Positions 9,424-51,802 of a stretch of 51,802 nt of DNA are shown here, one piece after another. The DNA comes from Escherichia phage vB_EcoS_NBD2. The stretch lies in the sequence record NC_031050.1, one strand, 5' to 3'. The notes beneath the pieces are model-generated. The model made no database searches. It saw only the letters and a list, made by a program, of their open reading frames with translations, and had not been told where the DNA came from. Position 1 is the first letter of the stretch. Each line of letters begins with the position of its first letter. A program made the translations under genes and the position numbers.

Positions 9424-9511
9424 GGAAGGATGGCAGAGAGGACGATTGCGCGCGGTTGCTAACCGTGAAGCCGGAAACGGCTCAAGGGTTCGAATCCCTT
9501 TCTTTCCACCA
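9424..9511 (+). tRNA. tRNA-Ser (anticodon GCU), class II with long variable arm, CCA encoded
   Basis: Hand-folded cloverleaf: acceptor GGAAGGA/TCTTTCC (one G-U), U8, D-stem GCAG/TTGC, anticodon stem CGCGG/CCGTG, loop TTGCTAA (U33, GCT, A37), variable arm GCCG-gaaa-CGGC, T-arm AAGGG-TTCGAAT-CCCTT, discriminator A, CCA. Confidence 0.8.
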
Positions 9512-25766: not shown

Positions 25767-28700
25767 ATGAAAAATAACATGATAGTGACAGGCCGGAAGG
25801 GTGGAAGCAGCAAGCCGAAAACCCCAAAGGAAATGGAAGATAATTTAATCTCCATTAACAAAATCAAGGTATTGCTAGCCGTTTCAGATGGCGAGTGCGA
25901 TCCAGATTTCTCGCTGAAAGATCTGTATTTGAATGACGTTCCGGTGATCGCGCCATCCGGCGAAGAGAACTACAAGGGAATCATTGCAGAGTTTCGCCCA
26001 GGTACGCAGACGCAGGATTACATTAAGGGCTTCACCGACACCGCCAGCGAAATTACAGTTTCGCGAGTGATTAAGGCCGATAACCCTTACATCATCGCCG
26101 TTACCAATAAAACGCTTTCGGCTATCAGAATCAAGATCCTTGCCCCGCGCATGGTATACACCGAATCCGATGGCGATATGGTTGGCACCAAAGTTGAATA
26201 CGCGGTTGATATGGCGATTGATGGCGCAACTTATCAGCAGGTGTTTAAAGACACGATCGACGGAAAAACAATGTCGGGTTACGACAGAAGCAAGCGCGTA
26301 GACCTGCCAGCTTTCAACGATCAAGTGTTGCTGCGAGTTCGCCGCATTACGGCTGATTCAACGGATGCGCGCCGCGTTGATGAAATTCAGGTTCAGTCTT
26401 ACGCCGAAGTGATTGATGCCAAGTTCCGCTATCCCCTGACGGGTTTAGTTTACGTTGAGTTTGATTCTGAAATGTTCCCGCAGATGCCGAACATTTCCGT
26501 TAAAAAGAAATGGAAACTTGTTAACGTTCCGAGCAACTACAACCCTGTTTTGCGCGAATACGTTGGCACATGGGATGGCGTATTCAAAAAGGCGTGGACG
26601 AATAACCCAGCGTGGGTGCTGTACGATTTGATCACCAATCAGCGCTACGGACTCGATCAAAGAGAGTTAGGCATCGCGGTTGATAAGTGGAGCCTTTACG
26701 ACGCAGGCCGATATTGTGATCAGATGGTTCCAGACGGAAAGGGCGGAACAGAGCCGCGCTATCTTTGTGATGTGGTTATTCAGTCGCAGATTGAAGCGTA
26801 TAACCTCGTGCGCGATATTTGCTCAATCTTCCGAGGTATGAGCTTTTGGAACGGTGAAAGCCTTTCCATCGTGATTGACAGGCCGCGCGAAGCGTCTTAC
26901 ATCTTCACGAATGACAACGTGGTTAACGGTTCATTCTCCTACACTTTCGCCAGTGAAAAGAGCATGTACACCACTTGCAACGTGACGTTTGACGATGAAC
27001 AAAACATGTATCAACAGGACGTTGAAGGCGTTTTTGATCTGGAAGCCTCCGTGCGATTCGGGCACAACCCGACGAGCATCACGGCGATCGGATGCACCCG
27101 CCGAAGCGAAGCAAACCGCCGAGGGCGCTGGATTCTGAAAACGAACTTGCGCAGCACAACGGTTAACTTTGCAACTGGTCTGGAGGGGATGATTCCGATG
27201 ATTGGCGACGTGATCGCAATTGAGGACAACCACTGGAGCAGCGGCAACAAGCTTTCTTTATCCGGTCGAGCGATGGAAGTTAGCGGCCTGCAGGTGTTTA
27301 CTCACTTCCGAGTTGATGCGCGCCCAGGTGATTTCATCATCGTAAACAAGCCTGATGGTAATCCGGTTCGCCGCACGATTTCGAACGTATCGGCAGACGG
27401 CAAAACGATTATGTTGAACGTTGGTTTCGGGTTTGATGTTAAGCCGAACGCAGTTTTCGCCATTGACCGCACAGACGTTACTTTGCAGCAGTACGTTGTT
27501 ACGCAGATCAGCAAGGGCGATGGAAGCGATGAGTTTTGCTATTCAATCACGGCGGTTGAGTACGACCCGAACAAATACGACGAAATCGACTACGGCGTAA
27601 ATATTGATGACCGACCGACAAGCATCGTTGATCCCGACAACATGCAGCCGCCTAAAAACATTCGCGTGTCGTCTTACTCGCGAGTTGTCCAGGGCATGAG
27701 TGTTGAAACGATGGTTATCGGCTGGGATAAGGCACCGTATTCGAGCACTTATGATGTGCAATGGCGCAAGGATAATGGCAACTGGAACAACGTTCCACGA
27801 ACCGCAAACAGTGAAGTTGAGATCGAAGGAATTTACTCCGGCAACTATCACGTGCGCGTGCGGTCAATCTCAAGCGGCGATAACATGTCTCCGTGGTCTG
27901 CGGTTGTATCGGTTGGCTTGACGGGCAAAGTTGGTGAGCCAGCAACACCAATTAACCTGACGGCTACGGATAACGAAGTGTTTGGGATTCGCGTTAAGTG
28001 GGGAATGCCTACTGGATCAGAGGACACGGCTTATATTGAGTTGCACCAATCGCCTGACGGCACGGCGCAGAATGCAAGCCTGTTAACTATGATTCCTTAC
28101 CCGCAGTATGAATACTGGCACTCAATACTTCCGGCTGGCTTCGTTGATTGGTATCGAATCCGCAGTGTTGACAGGATCGGGAATGTTTCGCAATGGACAA
28201 AGTTTGTGCGCGGCATGGCCTCTGATGACGTTGATCAGATCATGGACGTAATCAAGATTGACATTGAAAATTCCGAAGGGTTCAAGGAGCTTGCAGAAAG
28301 CACTATCGACAGCGCAAACAAGATTCGTGAGCAGGCGCAAACTGATATTCAGAACGCACTGGCTAACGATTACAATCTGATCTGGACTCGCAAGCAGAAC
28401 GGCAACCGCAAGGCCGAATACGGCAAGGCAGTTGAGCTTATCGCTACAGAAACAGAGGCGCGAGTTGCAGCAATCGAAGAGCTTAGGGCGAGCATTGGCG
28501 ACGATATCCAGGGGCAGATCATCACGCTACGCGAGGCGATCGCAACCGAGGAAGAAGCGCGAGTGAAAGCGGTTCAACAGCTTGATGTGAAATTCACAAA
28601 CGGCCTGGCAAGTGCAAACGCTAACATCGGCAGGCTTGATGAGGCGGTTGTTAACGAGCAGCAGGCGCGGGCGCAGGCGATCACCTCGCTTGATACGAAA

Positions 28701-29399: not shown

Positions 29400-29732
29400 T
29401 TAGATGATTTTGTTGGGATCTGGTAGGTAACGGGAAGTCTGTGATGCGATCATGTCATCGCGCCCCATCTTTCCTTTGCCAAAGGCGAACTTCATGGAGT
29501 AGTTGCCCTGGTCTTTGTAGCACATCACGCTAACGTTTTTTCGAAGGTGCTTATCGAAAATCACGTTGCTTGATTCCTGAATGGTGATTTCTTTATTCTG
29601 GCAATCAAGATTAAAAGTAACCTCGCCAGTTAGTGAGAGGCGGCTTGCATCAACCGGATAGCCAATATTAATGTTTAAAGCCATAGCATTTAAAGGCAAC
29701 AGGAAGAGCACAGCGAGCATGATTTTTTTCAT
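29400..29732 (-). CDS. secreted small protein (candidate superinfection exclusion or receptor-blocking protein)
   Basis: Signal peptide MKKIMLAVLFLLPLNAMA; RBS acgagga; lies just downstream of J on the opposite strand. Confidence 0.45.
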   Translation of the reverse strand: MKKIMLAVLFLLPLNAMALNINIGYPVDASRLSLTGEVTFNLDCQNKEITIQESSNVIFDKHLRKNVSVMCYKDQGNYSMKFAFGKGKMGRDDMIASQTSRYLPDPNKII

Positions 29733-29763
29733 TGGTACTTCCTCGTTTCGTTAAGTTGAAATG

Positions 29764-29806
29764 AGTATAGCCCCATTTGCGGGGCTTGTTTTAGCAATTC
29801 GTGCGG
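29764..29806 (-). promoter_or_regulatory. motif promoter on - strand (CCGCACgaaTTGCTAAAAC, 22 nt, TATACT)
   Basis: Reverse complement of 29788-29806 is the motif; -10 is reverse complement of 29764-29769. Confidence 0.45.
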
Positions 29807-30460
29807 TTAGTTGTAACCCTGGAATTTCGCGTATGGTATTTTGAGGTTTCCGCGACCGTTGAAGATTTCAGAGAAAGAGCGTTGGTTTCTTCTGATCCAG
29901 TATGTCTGCAACTGCGATCCCGTCCAGCGCATGAGGTTGCCGGAATAACCCTGAGTTTCTCCGTCGTCGCTCCATTCACCGTAACAGGCATCCCAGAGAA
30001 AGAAGGGGTTAAAACCTGGAGTCACGGAGGCAACGTTAGCCTCAAGGTTGAATGACGCCGGAACGTCAAGGAATCCCATTATTCGAGGCATTGTTGCGGC
30101 GCTAGCGGCAGTCCAAACAAGATTACCGGAAGCGTCGAATACGTCGAGATAGCCGGACGCAAGCGCCTTGTTTCTCGAAGTCCTGATTATCCTGATTGCG
30201 TTAGTGCTGAACATATCCGCGCCAGGGTAGCCCCACTGGTTATTACCTGTAAACTGAATCCAGGTTAGAAAACCATCCTTGCGCTTATCACCATCGCGAA
30301 GATTGCCAAGGGCTTTAACGTCGCCAAATGGCGTGCTTAGGCTGTAAGCCCCAACGTCAATTAGCGGCTGCGGAGTGTAGACGGAATCAAAGATCGTATG
30401 CTTTTGATCGGAGTTGATCAGGACAACACCAGCGTTATTAAGTACCTCAAAGCCTGACAT
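29807..30460 (-). CDS. hypothetical protein
   Basis: 217-aa ORF, first or second gene of a - strand operon from the 30.8-31.2 kb control region. Confidence 0.5.
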   Translation of the reverse strand: MSGFEVLNNAGVVLINSDQKHTIFDSVYTPQPLIDVGAYSLSTPFGDVKALGNLRDGDKRKDGFLTWIQFTGNNQWGYPGADMFSTNAIRIIRTSRNKALASGYLDVFDASGNLVWTAASAATMPRIMGFLDVPASFNLEANVASVTPGFNPFFLWDACYGEWSDDGETQGYSGNLMRWTGSQLQTYWIRRNQRSFSEIFNGRGNLKIPYAKFQGYN

Positions 30461-30468
30461 AAAGCCCC

Positions 30469-30777
30469 CTAGTTAAACACGTAAACTTCAATGGTAAGAG
30501 TCTGATCAACAAACGGGTTGCTTGTTGGCAGGTAAAGAACATCAACGCCGCCGTTTTTCGTCACGGCTGCATAGCTGGGTTTATACACAGCGCCAGCAGA
30601 TGCCACCATGACAACCGCGAACGAGTTGGCACCAGTCAGCCCAGCTACGTTGAAAGAAACCGCGCGAGTAGTTCGCGGGAATGATATGTTTTGCCGGACA
30701 ACAAAGCGCGTGCTGAAATCGCCAAGATCGACAACCAGGTTTCCGCTTGCATCCCAGGCTTGCAGGCCAGCAGGCAT
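30469..30777 (-). CDS. hypothetical protein
   Basis: 102-aa ORF with RBS ggagga upstream of ATG at 30777. Confidence 0.5.
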   Translation of the reverse strand: MPAGLQAWDASGNLVVDLGDFSTRFVVRQNISFPRTTRAVSFNVAGLTGANSFAVVMVASAGAVYKPSYAAVTKNGGVDVLYLPTSNPFVDQTLTIEVYVFN

Positions 30778-31179
30778 GGTGAATCCTCCATTCGTTTGAT
30801 TAAGTCGAAATCATACACCAGGGCGCAGGAAGAAGCAAAAATAACAGAGCGCCAGTTGTTCTATTTGTTATCGCTTGTTTCAGATTTGCGCCGGACAGTG
30901 TTTTGGCTACTTTTTGCACAGACTCACCCAGTGAAATAATACAATAATATCTATATATAATAAGGGTTTAGTAATAATCATCATTATTATATTACTCTGT
31001 TTGTTATACCTGTTATCGTTGTTTCACTATCTTTCCGTGTATCTGCAAAAATATTACTTGAGTGTTTTGTGTGGGTATTGTGGCAGATGCAAACACACAT
31101 ACCCCCCGCAGAAGGTGAAACATATTGAACAAATAGAACAGCGTTGATATTCAAGCATTTTTCTTGTTGCACGATAGCT

Positions 31180-31216
31180 ATAACAAGAAATAACACTTAT
31201 AACAGAATAAATAACA
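31180..31216. repeat. four direct ATAACA repeats at about 10-bp spacing
   Basis: ATAACA at 31180, 31190, 31199, 31211. Confidence 0.6.
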
Positions 31217-31244
31217 TTGACGAATCAAACCAATCGCGTATACT
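31217..31244 (+). promoter_or_regulatory. sigma70-like promoter TTGACG-16-TATACT for recombination operon
   Basis: Hexamers 31217-31222 and 31239-31244. Confidence 0.5.
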
Positions 31245-31276
31245 CCACCACATCAACCACAAGCGAGGATTTACAG

Positions 31277-32335
31277 ATGACACCTACCAAACCGCAAGCG
31301 GATTTTTTCTGGTTCACAAACGATGAAATGCCGAACGACTTTTATCACGATAAAGAAGCCTGGACGTTCGACTATGTTTCCGGTTCAAGCCTGGGTAAAA
31401 TTCACTCATCATGCCTGGCAAAGTGGCGCTTCGAAGAGAATGAGCCAACGGCGGCGCTGGAGTTCGGCACACAGGCGCACACCAACTTTGAAAGCAACGA
31501 GCTATTCGCATCAACCTACCGACGCGCCCCGTTCGTTGAAGATTTCAAGGATGCTATCACTTCGCAAGCAGCATTCGCGGCTAAATTGAAAAGCTTCGGC
31601 CTGACAGGTACAAGCGGGAAGCAATATCCAGAGCTTTGCAAAATATACGCTGATTGCGGTGAAGATCTTAACGTAATGTGGATTGAAGATCTGATCGCGC
31701 AATCAAAGGCGGCGCACGATGGCGTTGAGTTGGTAAAGGCCGAAGATTATGATGCCTGTGTTTCAATGCGTAAGGTGCTGGAGTCTATACCGGAATACGC
31801 ACAACTCATGAACGATCCGGCAGCGATGCACGAGCTTTCATTGTTCGGCAAAATAAACGGCGTGAACGTCAAAGTTCGCCTGGATTACTGCGCAACAATC
31901 AGCGATCCTGAAATGATTAAGTTGCTGGGCTATAACCCAGAGATTAACCCAGAGATTGTGCTGATTCTTGACTATAAGACAACGACCAGCGCCAACCCTC
32001 ACGAGTTCGATCGAAAGGCGTTTGATCTGGGCTATTACTTGAAGATGGCTTTGCAGCGTGATTTGTTTGTCAATGTGTTTGAAGAAACGCGCCCCGTCGC
32101 AGTTGTCCTACTAACCCAGGAAAAGAAAGCGCCATTCTTGCCTCTGGCTCGACCAATGACGAAAGAGCAGATCATTCACGGGCGCAAGCAGTACATGAGC
32201 GTTATTCACCAGTACGAGATCAGCAGCCGTGATGATGTTTGGCCTTCTTACGCAAACGGCGCGCCATTCGTTCACCTGCAAACGCCGGATTACATCAAGC
32301 GCCAACATCCTGATATTTACGGCGAAAACAAATAG
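31277..32335 (+). CDS. PD-(D/E)xK-family recombination exonuclease
   Basis: Motifs VRLDY and ILDYKTT consistent with PD-(D/E)xK nuclease core; ORF 31217..32335 trimmed to ATG 31277 (RBS gaggat); precedes Erf-like and SSB genes. Confidence 0.5.
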   Translation: MTPTKPQADFFWFTNDEMPNDFYHDKEAWTFDYVSGSSLGKIHSSCLAKWRFEENEPTAALEFGTQAHTNFESNELFASTYRRAPFVEDFKDAITSQAAFAAKLKSFGLTGTSGKQYPELCKIYADCGEDLNVMWIEDLIAQSKAAHDGVELVKAEDYDACVSMRKVLESIPEYAQLMNDPAAMHELSLFGKINGVNVKVRLDYCATISDPEMIKLLGYNPEINPEIVLILDYKTTTSANPHEFDRKAFDLGYYLKMALQRDLFVNVFEETRPVAVVLLTQEKKAPFLPLARPMTKEQIIHGRKQYMSVIHQYEISSRDDVWPSYANGAPFVHLQTPDYIKRQHPDIYGENK

Positions 32336-36027: not shown

Positions 36028-36963
36028 TCACTCCGCAGAGTCAATAAGATCCTGCGCGTTAAATAGTTGCCGCCGCATCCCTGTTTTGAAGTCCGATCCG
36101 TTCGGCACGATAACTTTCAACTCCCGATCATCTGCCATGTAAAGCGTTTGCAGGTCATCAGCAAGGCACGCAACGCGCAATTCCCGCTCTCCCTTGTAAC
36201 GATACGCCACGATCTCAAGGTTGCTTGCATCAGTACAAACCCAGACTTCCTGATTGGTTGCGAAGTTCACCCGCTCGCCATCAGCCCAATCATTCACCAG
36301 GTAGATCGCGCCCTCACTCTCTCCGACTTTTATCACCGCTCCCCGCGTGTAATCCTTTGCAAGAAACGATCGGCTTCCATCCTCGAAGGCAAACATTATG
36401 TTGCACATTTCATCATCAAGGCCGTCATCATGCACCATATGGCACGGCAACGCGTGGATAAACTCATCAGACCCATCAGGACGCGATTTAACTCCTACGC
36501 TGTACGATTCGCCGTATAAACCTTCAAAGACCGTTAGAGGCGTGCTTGAGCGCAATTCTGTGCGGCTCATTACTTCAATGCAGGCCTCGTGATCAATCTG
36601 TTTCCCAAACGTGTAGCCGTTGTCTCTGGTTGCCCGCTTATTTGCCTTAACGCGATACTCTTGCGGAACCTTACCCAGAAAGCGCCCCAGGATGTTAATC
36701 ACTTCACTGTACGGCTCGCCAGTTAAGCGCATCATCCAGCCAATGCCCTTATCCGCTCCGCAACTGTTACAGTAAGCGCCGCCGTCGCCAGGCTCTTCAA
36801 GTTTATCAGTCCAGCGGAATCGGTCTTTACCGCCGCATGACGGGCAACTCTGGTGTTTTTTGTTGAACACGATTGATGGCACGCCGCAAACAGACTGCAA
36901 AGCCTCACGCCAAAGGCCTTTCATGTACGGCAATACTTCTTCTTTCTGAAACATTTCATTCAT
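36028..36963 (-). CDS. DNA primase (zinc-ribbon plus Toprim-like)
   Basis: N-terminal CPSCGGKDRF...CNSCG zinc ribbon followed by an acidic-residue-rich domain. Confidence 0.6.
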   Translation of the reverse strand: MNEMFQKEEVLPYMKGLWREALQSVCGVPSIVFNKKHQSCPSCGGKDRFRWTDKLEEPGDGGAYCNSCGADKGIGWMMRLTGEPYSEVINILGRFLGKVPQEYRVKANKRATRDNGYTFGKQIDHEACIEVMSRTELRSSTPLTVFEGLYGESYSVGVKSRPDGSDEFIHALPCHMVHDDGLDDEMCNIMFAFEDGSRSFLAKDYTRGAVIKVGESEGAIYLVNDWADGERVNFATNQEVWVCTDASNLEIVAYRYKGERELRVACLADDLQTLYMADDRELKVIVPNGSDFKTGMRRQLFNAQDLIDSAE

Positions 36964-37017: not shown

Positions 37018-37494
37018 TTATTCTTTAGCTTTTAGTGCTGCCTCACGCTCGCGCTTAATCCGTTTCCATGATGGTTGTTCCGGCTTGTGGGCTAACTCAT
37101 CCTCACGAACCACACGCATCATTTCACGCTTTTTGCATCGCACTGTTAATGGCTTGCCGTTGCCGTCGAAGGTGAGATCTGGTCGGCACCATGTAGCGCG
37201 AAAGCCCTTAGCCCCATTTCGCTTATATGCGTTGTGCGCCTTCTGCGCCCCGCGCGCGGAAATCATGCCGTTTTTAATCCAGATGGTGAGCAGTGAGTTT
37301 GAGATCTTCAACTCACGGCAAACGTTGGCCTTCGAGCCGTAAAACTCGATAAGCATTTCAAGGCGGGCACGCAATCCGGCCTTTACTTCATCTTTCAGAA
37401 CGTAGTAGCCTGTAGGCCGCTTGCGCTTCTTCTTGTCTGCGCCGCGCTGCGTTCCGTTGTTCCCGTTAATGGCTCGCTTGTCAACTTCAATCAT
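37018..37494 (-). CDS. HTH DNA-binding protein, putative transcriptional regulator
   Basis: Predicted helix-turn-helix around ANVCRELKISNSLLTIWIKNG; basic N- and C-termini. Confidence 0.45.
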   Translation of the reverse strand: MIEVDKRAINGNNGTQRGADKKKRKRPTGYYVLKDEVKAGLRARLEMLIEFYGSKANVCRELKISNSLLTIWIKNGMISARGAQKAHNAYKRNGAKGFRATWCRPDLTFDGNGKPLTVRCKKREMMRVVREDELAHKPEQPSWKRIKREREAALKAKE

Positions 37495-44946: not shown

Positions 44947-45307
44947 CGCTCAATTTCTCAATATTCATCATTTCCCAGGTGTATCGGTCTTTGTCTCCGC
45001 CATAGCACCTGAAATCAAATTCAAAGGGGCGTTTCTGCGCTCCCTTTGCCCCATACCAGCGATTTTCTCCCCATAAGTAACCCAACCCCATCATCCTTGC
45101 GCAAAACTCCTTAGATGCGCTTGAGGCGAAGAATCTGGGCGTTACTCCAGCGGCGCGGGCTAATCGCTCACACTCACGATGTTTGAAGATGAAAACCGCC
45201 AAATGCTGACGGTTGAATTTTTCGTAAGACTCACAAAAGCGGTAAATGTCAAGAAGAAACATATCATCATCCCAGGAGGCGAGGGTTAACGTAAACTTTA
45301 TCACCAA
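44912..45307 (-). CDS. hypothetical protein
   Basis: 131-aa ORF overlapping 3-prime end of the P-loop gene; alternative start at 45262 just after the upstream stop. Confidence 0.4.
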   Translation of the reverse strand: MVIKFTLTLASWDDDMFLLDIYRFCESYEKFNRQHLAVFIFKHRECERLARAAGVTPRFFASSASKEFCARMMGLGYLWGENRWYGAKGAQKRPFEFDFRCYGGDKDRYTWEMMNIEKLSDEELFGKAGAN

Positions 45308-46859
45308 TCACGCAGCAATAGCCCTTTTCCTCCAGTTGAGGGAGTAGGTGATCTTTGATGCGCGTCATTGTTCCGGCCTGGCCTTCGAACGGCTTCACCT
45401 TTCGCGCCGCCTCATACAGAGAACGGACGTTAACAACCCCTTTAGGCGATCCGCTCTTTGCTCCACGGCTCATTATGTCTAAAAGCTTGTTCATTTCCGC
45501 GTTATCCCCAGCGTGCCCAGCGGCGTTTGCGGAAGATAAATACGTTTTACTCAACTCGTGAAACATAATGATCGCCTCTTGCATCGTGTCTAACTCGATC
45601 TCACGAGACTTTGCCGCCGATCCCTTCTCGCTAAACCAGTTGCGCACAGTATGCAGAACGGATGCGATGCGGATTACCTGCTTGTCAAACTTACCCAGGG
45701 CACCGCGTAACATGGTGTGGGAATACTTGCCGCCGTCTGCAAGGTGAGGCTCCATTTCCTGACGCGCTTTGTTCAGGTAGCGCATACCGGACGGGCTAAC
45801 CGTCAACTTCACATCTACTTCGCTCATGATCGCGTGAACCAGCTTGAAGTAATCGGCCTTTAGGCCTCCATCGATCGGCTCGTAAGTCGATTCGCCTTGC
45901 TCGTTGACGAACTGGCGACGGCCTAAGAAAGACTCCTCACGCACCAACAAGAAACGCTCAGAAACACCGATACCGCGCGCGCCTGCATTCATGATGGCGT
46001 TGATTGTCTCATCTTGGGCGATAACAGAAATGCAGCCCAGCGCAACGAATGACATATTGTTATCCGCGTTAGCACGAGCGATCGACACGTTGCCCGCATC
46101 CCACGCTTTAAGCACCAATTCGCTGTTTGTTTTCTTCGAGCCGTCGCCGTAGGTCATGCCCAGAAGGGAGTTAACGCTTGTTGCTTCGTCCGAGATCACG
46201 GCGAAGTTGCCTTGACGGTTGTTAATGCGCGCCAGGCCTTCTGGTGTGGTATCAGATACCGGAAACACGATATCACAAAGGCGCTCAAGCTTTTCTTCTA
46301 ACTCTTCTTTCTCTTCGAACAGCGCCGCCATATCTGACGGTGATTTCTCCTGCTTCATTTCCTTCGCCAGCGCCGAAAGCTTCGCCATGATCTTCTTTCG
46401 ATCACGCTTGCGGATCTCGTTGAGTCGCTCAGTCTCCGAAATCATTGGAGCAAGGGAGAGTGAGTTGATAGCAGACTTCCCCGTCGATGGAGGCTGACTA
46501 GTGACAACGTAAAGCGCCGTTGGTTGTTGCGTGCCGTGATACTCAACCGTGAAGCGCCCAAGCATCGCAGCGGAAACGCAGCCCAGGAAATGAATATAGG
46601 CCGATGACTCTGGGAACTGCACAGATCGCGCAGCGTTACGCGAAAGCTTGCCCACAACGTCAACATCATTGCCCAGAGAGATCACGGGGTATTTCTCGTT
46701 CCCGTTGTCGATTTCGGTCGGCTCGTTCCAGAACGATTGAGAATGACGATAGCCATTCGCATTGATCGCAACGCGCAGCGGAGTTAGGCCGCTCGTGTTG
46801 GCGATTTCAATGATCTGTTGTGGTGTAAGCGTGTTTGTGTTGAAACCTAAATCAAACAT
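45267..46859 (-). CDS. P-loop NTPase protein of unknown function
   Basis: 530 aa; Walker A-like QPPSTGKS and Walker B-like FAVISDE; RBS aaaggag; motif promoter upstream. Confidence 0.6.
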   Translation of the reverse strand: MFDLGFNTNTLTPQQIIEIANTSGLTPLRVAINANGYRHSQSFWNEPTEIDNGNEKYPVISLGNDVDVVGKLSRNAARSVQFPESSAYIHFLGCVSAAMLGRFTVEYHGTQQPTALYVVTSQPPSTGKSAINSLSLAPMISETERLNEIRKRDRKKIMAKLSALAKEMKQEKSPSDMAALFEEKEELEEKLERLCDIVFPVSDTTPEGLARINNRQGNFAVISDEATSVNSLLGMTYGDGSKKTNSELVLKAWDAGNVSIARANADNNMSFVALGCISVIAQDETINAIMNAGARGIGVSERFLLVREESFLGRRQFVNEQGESTYEPIDGGLKADYFKLVHAIMSEVDVKLTVSPSGMRYLNKARQEMEPHLADGGKYSHTMLRGALGKFDKQVIRIASVLHTVRNWFSEKGSAAKSREIELDTMQEAIIMFHELSKTYLSSANAAGHAGDNAEMNKLLDIMSRGAKSGSPKGVVNVRSLYEAARKVKPFEGQAGTMTRIKDHLLPQLEEKGYCCVIGDKVYVNPRLLG

Positions 46860-50180: not shown

Positions 50181-50422
50181 TCGATCACCTCCACTTCATC
50201 ACTACGGAAGTAGATCGAGAAGTTCCACATATCCGGCCCTTCCATGATTTCAGCCGCCGCCCCGCCATGCTTCGCGCAGTCGTGGAGGTGAATATCGAAA
50301 CCCCACTCCGCGCCCATTGCTTCGCTGTGATACTTCGCCTCAACCTCGAAAGGCTTAAACGGGAACTCTTCATTCCATACGTGAACATAATTTTCGTGAC
50401 CGCCGATTACTTTTACTTTCAT
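50177..50422 (-). CDS. hypothetical protein
   Basis: 81-aa ORF, ATGA overlap. Confidence 0.4.
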   Translation of the reverse strand: MKVKVIGGHENYVHVWNEEFPFKPFEVEAKYHSEAMGAEWGFDIHLHDCAKHGGAAAEIMEGPDMWNFSIYFRSDEVEVIE

Positions 50423-50670
50423 GATGATAGCCCCTTGTTGGTTAGTTGTTCTATAATGTTACAGGTTTTGTTTATGCAATCCGCCTGGGCAGATGCGTTT
50501 CCGCTCGTGTAATCACGCTCGACAAGTATATCATAGGCCTCTTCCGTCCAGTGGATGATTGTTACGGTTGTGATTGGTGCTCCCATTCCATTCGAGCGAT
50601 GTTCGCGCCGGACGTAAAGCCCCAAACGTTCAGCCCTGGCAAGAGCGGCGATTAAGCCAGCATGTTTCAT
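50419..50670 (-). CDS. hypothetical protein
   Basis: ORF trimmed to ATG at 50670. Confidence 0.4.
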   Translation of the reverse strand: MKHAGLIAALARAERLGLYVRREHRSNGMGAPITTVTIIHWTEEAYDILVERDYTSGNASAQADCINKTCNIIEQLTNKGLSS

Positions 50671-51217: not shown

Positions 51218-51275
51218 ATTATTCCAATTATTCCAATTATTCCGAATATTCCATTCCACCAGAATAATTATTCCA
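51218..51275. repeat. tandem 9-bp ATTATTCCA-like repeats
   Basis: Three consecutive near-perfect units plus degenerate copies. Confidence 0.7.
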
Positions 51276-51301: not shown

Positions 51302-51802
51302 GTGATGATTCGATGCCGCTCCTTTCGTGATTAGATTTGATGAGTTTTGATTGTGATGTGATGAATGATGATGATTGATGACACTAGACCGATTGGTCTA
51401 ATCATTTTTTCGCACCGCACTTTTTGCGCTTGTTATTGTTGTTGTCGTGTGTTTCAATTTCACGCCCTCCGTGGAATCCGAAACGGAATAGTTGTTGATT
51501 AACAAAAATAACACTATACCCTTTTATAGTAAGTAATTAATATATATAGGTTTTTTATATTATATAAATATTGTTGTTATAGATTGTTCTATATGTTTCA
51601 CCATTCACGGGAGATATGTATACATTTTCCGAAAGGAATGGGCATATGATATTGCGCTTCCATTTGGACGGCGTGACGTAGGTATACATATACCCCTCCG
51701 CAAATAGCGGAACAAGGGCAACAGCCGATAACATTCGTCGATAACAAGCGGTGCGCCTGCGCTCGCCTCGCAAAAAGTGTTATAAGGCCGATTATTAACA
51801 AC

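Follow-up and report, generated by a model that had tools for sequence, protein, structure and literature searches.

A duplicated repeat module upstream of recE as a candidate replication origin of phage vB_EcoS_NBD2 and other Drexlerviridae

T1-like phages, an abundant group with uses in therapy work, are also notorious as contaminants of laboratories. Escherichia phage vB_EcoS_NBD2 (NC_031050.1), analysed here over its full 51,802 nt (the window), represents a complete or near-complete genome of such a siphovirus (Drexlerviridae, genus Vilniusvirus). Between three leftward hypothetical genes (30777 to 29400) and rightward genes for a recE-like exonuclease, Erf and SSB it bears a stretch of 499 nt (30778-31276, region A), which a first-pass annotation of the sequence had taken for a non-coding, divergent control region and for a candidate origin of replication or a set of multi-site operators. 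Is this, then, a place where replication of a T1-like phage starts? No origin or iterons were found in the T1-like phages TLS (PMC11447400) and SU57 (PMC7718038), and in these published analyses the role of the origin is thus vacant. Judged from its predicted proteins, NBD2 encodes the enzymes that an origin would load, without having a recognised origin.

We found in region A a module of short, phased repeats placed on both sides of an easily melted core. It has a paralog in the terminal non-coding region, and its layout recurs across Drexlerviridae with repeat words that differ from lineage to lineage; we found no description of it in the papers on T1-like phages that were consulted. This conserved, duplicated, cis-acting module almost certainly binds a phage-encoded protein. 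As to its function, we tentatively read the region 30856-31216 as a replication-origin module consisting of iterons and an unwinding element, and we rate this reading, which comes from sequence comparison, a shade below an even chance. A 360-bp candidate with a paralog and a family-wide layout, the best available for this phage family, makes the question of the T1-like origin directly testable. If the reading is true, the module would provide a cis element for engineering or blocking T1-like phages, as well as a natural series of re-specified iterons for studying the co-evolution of origins and initiators; if the module is transcriptional instead, it would still be an early control switch of the family.

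Phased repeats around an unwinding-prone core

Thirteen units of the form TGTT[ACT][ATC] are present in region A, where they make up four arrays with a phase of 9-12 bp. When an array was defined as at least three such units on one strand at a spacing of 8-12 bp, the whole genome was found to contain six: besides the four of region A, there is one at 50447-50474 and another in the terminal non-coding region. No array appeared in any of 30 simulated genomes. The hexamer ATAACA/TGTTAT, which occurs 35 times in 51.8 kb, has eight of its copies in region A, against an expectation of 0.6-0.8 (own composition or first-order Markov), and none of 5000 simulations reached eight. The elements of the module are as follows.

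30841-30846, minus strand: single TGTTAT unit (ATAACA on the plus strand), 2 nt upstream of the leftward -35 hexamer
30856-30882, plus strand: array 1, TTGTTCTAT / TTGTTATCGC / TTGTTTCA, with TGTT starting at 30857, 30866 and 30876
30883-30933, no strand: variable spacer, containing a DnaA-box-like TTTTGCACA (30913-30921) that is not conserved in relatives
30934-30994, no strand: AT-rich core of 13% G+C, candidate DNA-unwinding element, second least stable 60-mer of the genome
31000-31027, plus strand: array 2, TTTGTTATAC / CTGTTATCG / TTGTTTCAC, with TGTT starting at 31002, 31011 and 31020
31099-31115, plus strand: C-rich word ATACCCC(T)CCGCAGAAGG, also written ATACCCCCCGCAGAAGG, about 118 nt upstream of the recE -35 hexamer
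31113-31142, minus strand: array 3, inverted relative to arrays 1 and 2, GGTGAAACAT / ATTGAACAA / ATAGAACAGCG in plus-strand letters, with AACA starting at 31117, 31126 and 31135
31180-31216, minus strand: array 4, inverted, four ATAACA units starting at 31180, 31190, 31199 and 31211, the last of which adjoins the recE -35 hexamer

Arrays 1 and 2 thus flank the AT core in direct orientation and are direct repeats of each other at a distance of 145 bp, with their TGTTTCA words 144 bp apart; about 70 nt separate array 2 from the C-rich word, and about 40 nt lie between arrays 3 and 4. All of the repeats reported by the first-pass annotation were confirmed. The four ATAACA copies said to have a periodicity of about 10 bp are those of array 4, with spacings of 10, 9 and 12. 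The 17-bp direct repeat is present as well, its coordinates having been 1-2 nt off, and consists of TGTTATCGCTTGTTTCA at 30866-30882 and TGTTATCG-TTGTTTCA at 31011-31026, the second copy with a one-base deletion. The long-range inverted pair proved to be a perfect match of 13 nt (30857-30869 / 31128-31140), whose left arm lies in array 1 and right arm in array 3.

The stability of the duplex was assessed by the nearest-neighbour method for 60-mers and expressed as a z-score. The least stable 60-mer of the genome is 51521-51581 (z = 5.9), in the terminal non-coding region, and it is followed by the region A core, 30934-30994 (z = 5.6). Array 4 itself comes next (3.5), and the best value outside the two modules is 3.4.

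Conservation among relatives varies along the region. Around region A, NBD2 is 97-98% identical to the Klebsiella phages KLB19 and HazelMika. Among three Vilniusviruses, 17 of the 64 alignment columns of the spacer 30872-30936 vary (27%), whereas the core together with array 2 and the following 50 nt shows one change in 139 columns, the core being invariant, and the segment from array 4 through the recE promoter shows no variation. Array 4 is partly retained in LF82-10, and a 17-mer within the core, TATATAATAAGGGTTTA (30954-30970), is also present in LF82-10 and in phiEB49-like phages, with unalignable flanks.

One might still suppose that all this is chance similarity in a functionless AT-rich spacer. 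The 13-nt inverted repeat, taken alone, is indeed marginal (P ~0.06 against an AT-rich background), and the longest perfect direct repeat in region A is unremarkable. Nevertheless, the zero count of phased arrays in simulated genomes, the invariance of the core and array 2 next to a variable spacer, and the recurrence of the architecture in at least eight complete genomes of several Drexlerviridae genera and at 60 of 66 further recE loci (see below) make this explanation negligible in our view.

A gene or an RNA hidden in region A was also considered. The first-pass annotation was right to call the stretch non-coding: the internal open reading frames (30987-31196 on the minus strand and 31001-31147 on the plus strand) are frameshifted by a 1-nt indel in both close relatives. 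A minus-strand look-alike of a Shine-Dalgarno (SD) sequence plus ATG is not retained in LF82-10, and the 'peptides' of the two modules are unrelated. A structured RNA or cruciform was rejected too, as there was no Rfam match at gathering score (a chance-level hit had E = 0.32); fold z-scores were about 0 in region A (-0.06 for a hairpin beside the C-rich word) and -1.4 to -2.3 in the terminal module.

Two further observations concern individual repeats. A run of six C (31102-31107) stands where both relatives have CCCCTCC, a 1-nt indel that may be a real difference or a homopolymer sequencing error. The array at 50447-50474, the sole phased TGTT array outside both modules, lies just upstream of a minus-strand gene starting at 50422; a ATAGAACA word is found there too, as is a minus-strand promoter look-alike (TTGCAT, 17 nt, TTATAG).

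The terminal module and its counterparts across Drexlerviridae

It had been noticed in the first pass that several words of region A recur in the terminal non-coding region. We found TTGTTCTAT, TGTTTCA and GATAACA there at 51430-51778, and local alignment of region A with the terminal region gave a score of 55, compared with 28.5 +/- 4.2 for shuffles. The terminal region contains a paralogous module, which accounts for the words common to both regions. It continues across the junction into the start of the window, and its design is that of region A.

51430-51602, plus strand: left part of the terminal module, with an array (51430-51456), an AT core (51521-51581) and an array (51571-51602)
51690-51802, plus strand: right part of the terminal module, with ATACCCCTCCGCAAATAG (51690-51707), GATAACA at 51727 and 51740, and TGTTATAA at 51778

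The distance between the terminal TGTTTCA words (51450 and 51594) is 144 bp, the very value found around the region A core, and some 122 nt separate the C-rich word from the rightward -35 hexamer downstream of it, near the value of 118 in region A. This hexamer belongs to a promoter to the right of the module (TTGACA at 10-15, 17 nt, CACAAT at 33-38), which precedes the first rightward early gene (ATG at 70). The C-rich word was found in both modules of LF82-10, too.

We then compared both modules in LF82-10, PHB17, Sushi, Rtp, SH2, T1 and TLS, which represent several genera and subfamilies of Drexlerviridae. In all seven genomes the large early non-coding region and the site upstream of recE each harbour one of the two least stable 60-mers (z 5.0-6.5, the next being at most 4.0). 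At 60 of 66 further loci on viral contigs (about 20 kb each), the least stable 60-mer lies no more than 560 nt upstream of recE. The layout is kept: the core is flanked on either side by direct arrays, an inverted array follows some 100 nt further right, and more units stand near the promoter.

The words themselves depend on the lineage: TGTTC/TGTTT in TLS, PHB17 and several metagenomic lineages; GTAAGAT in Sushi-type Weberviruses (in Sushi, 10 copies in module A, 2 in module B and 5 elsewhere); GTGTAAC/TGTCTA/ATTACA in SH2 and T1; GTTAC/GTATAC in Rtp and phiEB49; and ACTACAG/GATACACG in LF82-10. In six other genomes, too, a lineage's own words are common to its two modules and flank the core. 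Such conservation of layout accompanied by a change of words is as expected of binding sites for a phage-encoded protein, and the finding of four different word sets in four E. coli phages argues for a phage-encoded binder rather than a host factor.

Could the module be simply the control region of recE? In TLS and Sushi the left neighbour is co-directional and the module is intact, hence divergence is not the conserved property; the name of a divergent control region is borne out in NBD2 by promoter matches on both strands and does not hold for the family. Moreover, in non-Drexlerviridae phages with homologous recE-erf-ssb genes no such region was found upstream of recE. As the module persists next to a co-directional neighbour and is missing outside the family, it is not simply a recE control region.

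Some lineages show peculiarities of their own. In lineage L081 (IMG/VR contig 3300045988_054655) CCTCCGC is the repeated unit, the 560 nt upstream of recE containing about 8 copies of (A)ATCCTCCGCAA. The C-rich word, which occurs once per NBD2 module and is multiplied in L081, may thus be a separate protein-binding site that can multiply. In Rtp (locus L045) the two cores, 28030-28170 and 46420-46520, are near-identical by eye over about 90 nt, much closer to each other than those of NBD2, which hints at gene conversion between modules. Several public annotations place a coding sequence over the module, probably as over-calls: recE of HazelMika (locus L002, 5919-7037) starts at a TTG in the -35 hexamer, PHB17 gp53 (locus L043, 30025-30339) spans the AT core, and rtp46 (locus L045, 28260-28658) also lies over the module.

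Replication, transcription or another function

Phased iterons that run both ways, a core prone to unwinding, duplication of the module, the turnover of words within a constant layout and independence from the orientation of neighbouring genes together form the grammar of an iteron origin, and this is why the origin reading is favoured here. The genes of NBD2 are compatible with it. Rightward of ssb there follow a tail-fibre gene, a primase gene, a Cro-like regulator gene and a gene for a RadD/SNF2-type helicase (a tRNA-Ser(GCU) gene, 9424-9511, lies in the rightward early region). The primase (36028-36963) matches the P4 alpha primase domain over residues 27-263 (E = 1e-12). A second helicase of 530 aa, encoded at 45267-46859, is a DUF3987 protein. 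DUF3987 proteins have been described as MCM-like replicative helicases with a C-terminal winged helix (PMC4889955), and for one member 5'-3' helicase activity has been shown and it works with a primase (PMC11724360).

From the features described above we infer protein binding, the nature of the binder, melting, helicase loading and initiation of replication at region A. In such a mechanism, a phage-encoded, lineage-specific DNA-binding protein would occupy the four arrays of TGTTnn units phased at about 9.5 bp and, by doing so, would bend or wrap the DNA. Negative supercoiling generated by two outward-firing sigma-70 promoters would add to this effect, and the 60-bp AT core (30934-30994) would open. 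The MCM-like helicase and the P4-alpha-like primase might then be loaded at the opened core, and the module at 51430-51802 may serve as a second origin or as a crr-like partner, as in phage P4. With somewhat less assurance, we extend this idea to all Drexlerviridae, including T1, whose origin has never been mapped: they may possess a bipartite P4-like system, in which two paralogous modules about 20 kb apart have unwinding cores bracketed by iterons that are re-specified between genera along with a phage initiator recruiting the DUF3987 helicase and the P4-alpha-type primase.

The outermost parts of region A are, however, promoters, predicted on both strands by consensus matches only, and they call for a transcriptional explanation to be weighed.

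30810-30838, minus strand: leftward sigma-70-type promoter of the three-gene hypothetical operon, -35 TTGCTT (30838-30833), 17-nt spacer, -10 TATGAT (30815-30810)
31217-31244, plus strand: rightward sigma-70-type promoter of recE-erf-ssb, TTGACG, 16-nt spacer, TATACT, a 10/12 match

The leftward operon has an SD sequence GGAGGA (30789-30784) and an ATG at 30777, and recE has GAGGA (31266-31270) and an ATG at 31277. Despite diverged flanks, LF82-10 retains the hexamers and spacing of the leftward promoter (TTGATT, 17 nt, TATTAT). An equivalent rightward promoter (TTGACT/TTGACA with TACAAT/TATAAT) precedes recE in most lineages, and a sigma-70 promoter is listed in TLS upstream of the exonuclease gene gp51, in the numbering of that paper (PMC11447400). 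No unit of region A overlaps a core promoter element, as all of them lie upstream of the -35 hexamers, and other lineages have 12-21 nt between the -35 and the nearest unit upstream of it. Thus, these are not classical operators. The first-pass suggestion of an origin or multi-site operators stands insofar as the repeats are real, helically phased, beyond chance and grouped around the second most meltable segment, and fails insofar as they do not cover core promoters in the way of operators.

The window also contains 18 copies of the T1-type direct repeat (DR), ATAGCAC-N3-TTGYTAAA, between 776 and 51200 (e.g. 776, 1278, 3330, 37505 and 51200), always oriented along transcription and with a -10-like hexamer, often extended by TG, at a fixed 22 nt downstream. 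In many copies a short inverted repeat (e.g. GGGGCTAT..ATAGCCCC) encloses this -10. Such 21-nt repeats, ATAGCAC-N3-TTGnTAAAA, were described in the TLS paper, where their function is an open question (PMC11447400). The end of array 3 resembles the DR, and ATAGAACA words run along transcription on both sides. We rejected the DR as the identity of region A, for the only look-alike, ATAGAACAGCGTTGATA (31133-31149), has A for C, a 4-nt rather than 3-nt spacer and no -10 in register at 22 nt. Furthermore, the DR is invariant family-wide, whereas the arrays of region A are lineage-specific.

According to the transcriptional explanation, the function of the module is control of early promoters only. 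The arrays would bind a phage transcription factor, e.g. the Cro-like helix-turn-helix (HTH) protein (37018-37494), which would activate, or later shut off, the sigma-70 early promoters; the AT core would be an UP-element, curved DNA or a site of extra promoters, with no replication function. Activators of the lambda CII type bind direct repeats at a 10-bp phase flanking the -35, and in accordance with such a role array 4 adjoins the recE -35, one unit is 2 nt from the leftward -35, and the nearest unit of other lineages, about 21 nt upstream of -35, is placed like that of a class I activator. Both modules end in consensus-like sigma-70 promoters, the T1-type DR being used at 18 other sites, and the variability of the Cro-like protein is concentrated in its recognition helix. 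On the other hand, the distance of arrays 1-3 and the core from the recE promoter is 80-360 nt, and the second module repeats their 144-bp geometry, which exceeds the needs of a promoter. The full module persists in Sushi, where recE is driven by a DR-type promoter, and in both TLS and Sushi, which have no divergent partner; relatives outside the family express recE without such a region; core promoter elements are free of units; and helix and words do not covary (see below). We consider control of early promoters alone less likely than an origin, albeit its main rival. Origin and transcription-control roles are compatible and not exclusive.

Several observations do weigh against an origin. 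Both modules coincide with the canonical sigma-70 promoters of the large non-coding regions of the genome, and the promoter-proximal arrays occupy activator-like positions, so that transcription control alone would account for many of these findings. Host-factor sites are scarce: region A lacks GATC and an IHF consensus, and its single DnaA-like box is not conserved. Cumulative GC skew, which the first pass had offered as a check, increases over the plus-strand structural genes, peaks at 31-33 kb and is minimal at the window ends. A turning point near 31 kb thus exists, but it is a maximum, and by bacterial convention (origin at the minimum) the terminal module would be favoured. As the skew follows blocks of gene orientation, it is uninformative as an origin test and neither supports nor refutes an origin; for phages it is a weak criterion anyway.

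Other observations concern the binder: among the regulator, the helicase and proteins searched for an alpha-type origin-binding domain (OBD), no initiator that binds the repeats and co-varies with them was identified. The Cro-like regulator (37018-37494, minus strand) has homologs that carry P22_Cro/YdaS Pfam hits, and no other protein of the replication cluster is predicted to bind DNA sequence-specifically. It is highly conserved save for the HTH recognition helix (residues about 64-72), which is different in nearly every lineage, a suggestive pattern. Yet for 19 helix types, helix identity was not correlated with similarity of word profiles (partial r = 0.06, P = 0.23; partial Mantel test controlling for the rest of the regulator, primase and recE). 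The regions extracted at some loci were incomplete, which makes this test weak rather than decisive. TGTT-type words accompany at least eight different recognition helices, and on these two grounds the regulator was provisionally set aside as the binder. In HazelMika one helix residue differs from NBD2 (I to T), yet the words of region A are identical. The C-terminus of the DUF3987 helicase was likewise rejected as the specificity determinant, being 78-79% identical between lineages with different words, and no homolog of the P4 alpha OBD was detected among the window proteins by hhalign and phmmer.

One more candidate was the product of the first early gene (DUF7174, 70-576), which adjoins the terminal module in all genomes checked and shows 14-29% identity between lineages, compared with 50-86% for most orthologs. 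It was rejected as well, since no DNA-binding domain could be recognised in it and the phage with its closest ortholog uses different words.

Finally, the module might serve some other DNA transaction or have an architectural role, as a pac-like site, as an entry site for RecE/Erf recombination, or as curved DNA bound by nucleoid proteins without a dedicated phage binder. In P1 pac, repeats flank a central AT-rich cleavage region. Many of the words hold A or T tracts (GAAACAA, TTTGTTTTC), a possible cause of DNA bending, and region A borders a mosaic junction: the leftward genes 29647-30770 share 95% identity with their counterparts in Escherichia phages Henu7 and IsaakIselin, which belong to other genera, and this similarity ends at the non-coding edge. 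The terminal untranslated region of T1-like phages has been reported to contain pac (PMC7718038). Nevertheless, the T1 and TLS records start inside a GAT-rich tract, to the left of the terminal AT core by some 200-230 nt, and position 1 of the T1 record is the annotated left end of a 2.8-kb terminal repeat, which makes this tract the likely pac region. Its homolog in NBD2 is GATTGTGATGTGATGAATGATGATGATTGATG (51336-51385), one of two repeat tracts peculiar to the terminal region, the other consisting of about 5 copies of ATTATTCCA (51218-51275). As region A has no counterpart of the GAT-rich tract, we rejected it as pac. Furthermore, GTAAGAT, GTGTAAC-N3-TGTCTAT and the exact 17-mer GATACACGCAACTACAG are not A-tracts and are identical within a genome, and host nucleoid proteins would need no different words in phages of the same host. 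Taken together, these roles appear quite improbable, clearly more so than control of early promoters.

Comparison with known origins

How does the candidate origin resemble those of other phages? The primary origin of T7 and oriF/oriG of T4 are transcription-activated and have an AT-rich unwinding element beside promoters, without iteron arrays. NBD2 shares with them the AT-rich element beside strong promoters and the virulent life style with its own primase and helicase. Their promoters, however, read into the AT-rich element, whereas the recognisable promoters of NBD2 fire away from the core.

Another likeness is found in the origins of staphylococcal pathogenicity islands (SaPI) and lambdoid phages, where two sets of short repeats bracket an AT-rich region and the repeats change between relatives with the layout remaining constant. 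A bracketed AT-rich tract and lineage-specific repeats are also found in NBD2. SaPI Rep and lambda O are known initiators whose specificity domain co-varies with the iterons, whereas in NBD2 no such co-varying initiator was identified; moreover, the lambda origin lies inside the initiator gene and region A is non-coding.

The system closest to the proposed origin seems to be ori/crr of phage P4. The GenBank annotation of P4 lists 'ori type 1 repeats', TGTTCACC, 8 bp long. An AT-rich stretch is surrounded by arrays of two or three of them, which have a spacing of 10-11 bp and occur in either orientation, and the repeats recur in crr, 4.7 kb away; a literature search with TGTTCACC returned primer sequences only. 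There are clear differences. NBD2 has its primase and helicase as separate proteins, distinct also from any origin binder, its helicase is of the DUF3987/MCM-like and not the superfamily 3 type, the alpha OBD has no homolog among the window proteins, and each module has an AT core of its own. The terminal units of NBD2 read TGTTTCAC and those of TLS GTGAACA, and the likeness of such 7-8-bp words to those of P4 could be coincidental. Both systems have short units (TGTTCACC in P4; TGTTTCAC, TGTTAT and TGTTCT in NBD2) in arrays of 2-4 with a phase of about 10 bp, in both orientations round an AT-rich stretch; both are non-coding and lie between oppositely oriented genes; both have a second cis element with the same units kilobases away; and the NBD2 primase is homologous to the alpha primase domain. 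By this analogy, we favour P4 ori/crr as the nearest known counterpart of the putative NBD2 origin.

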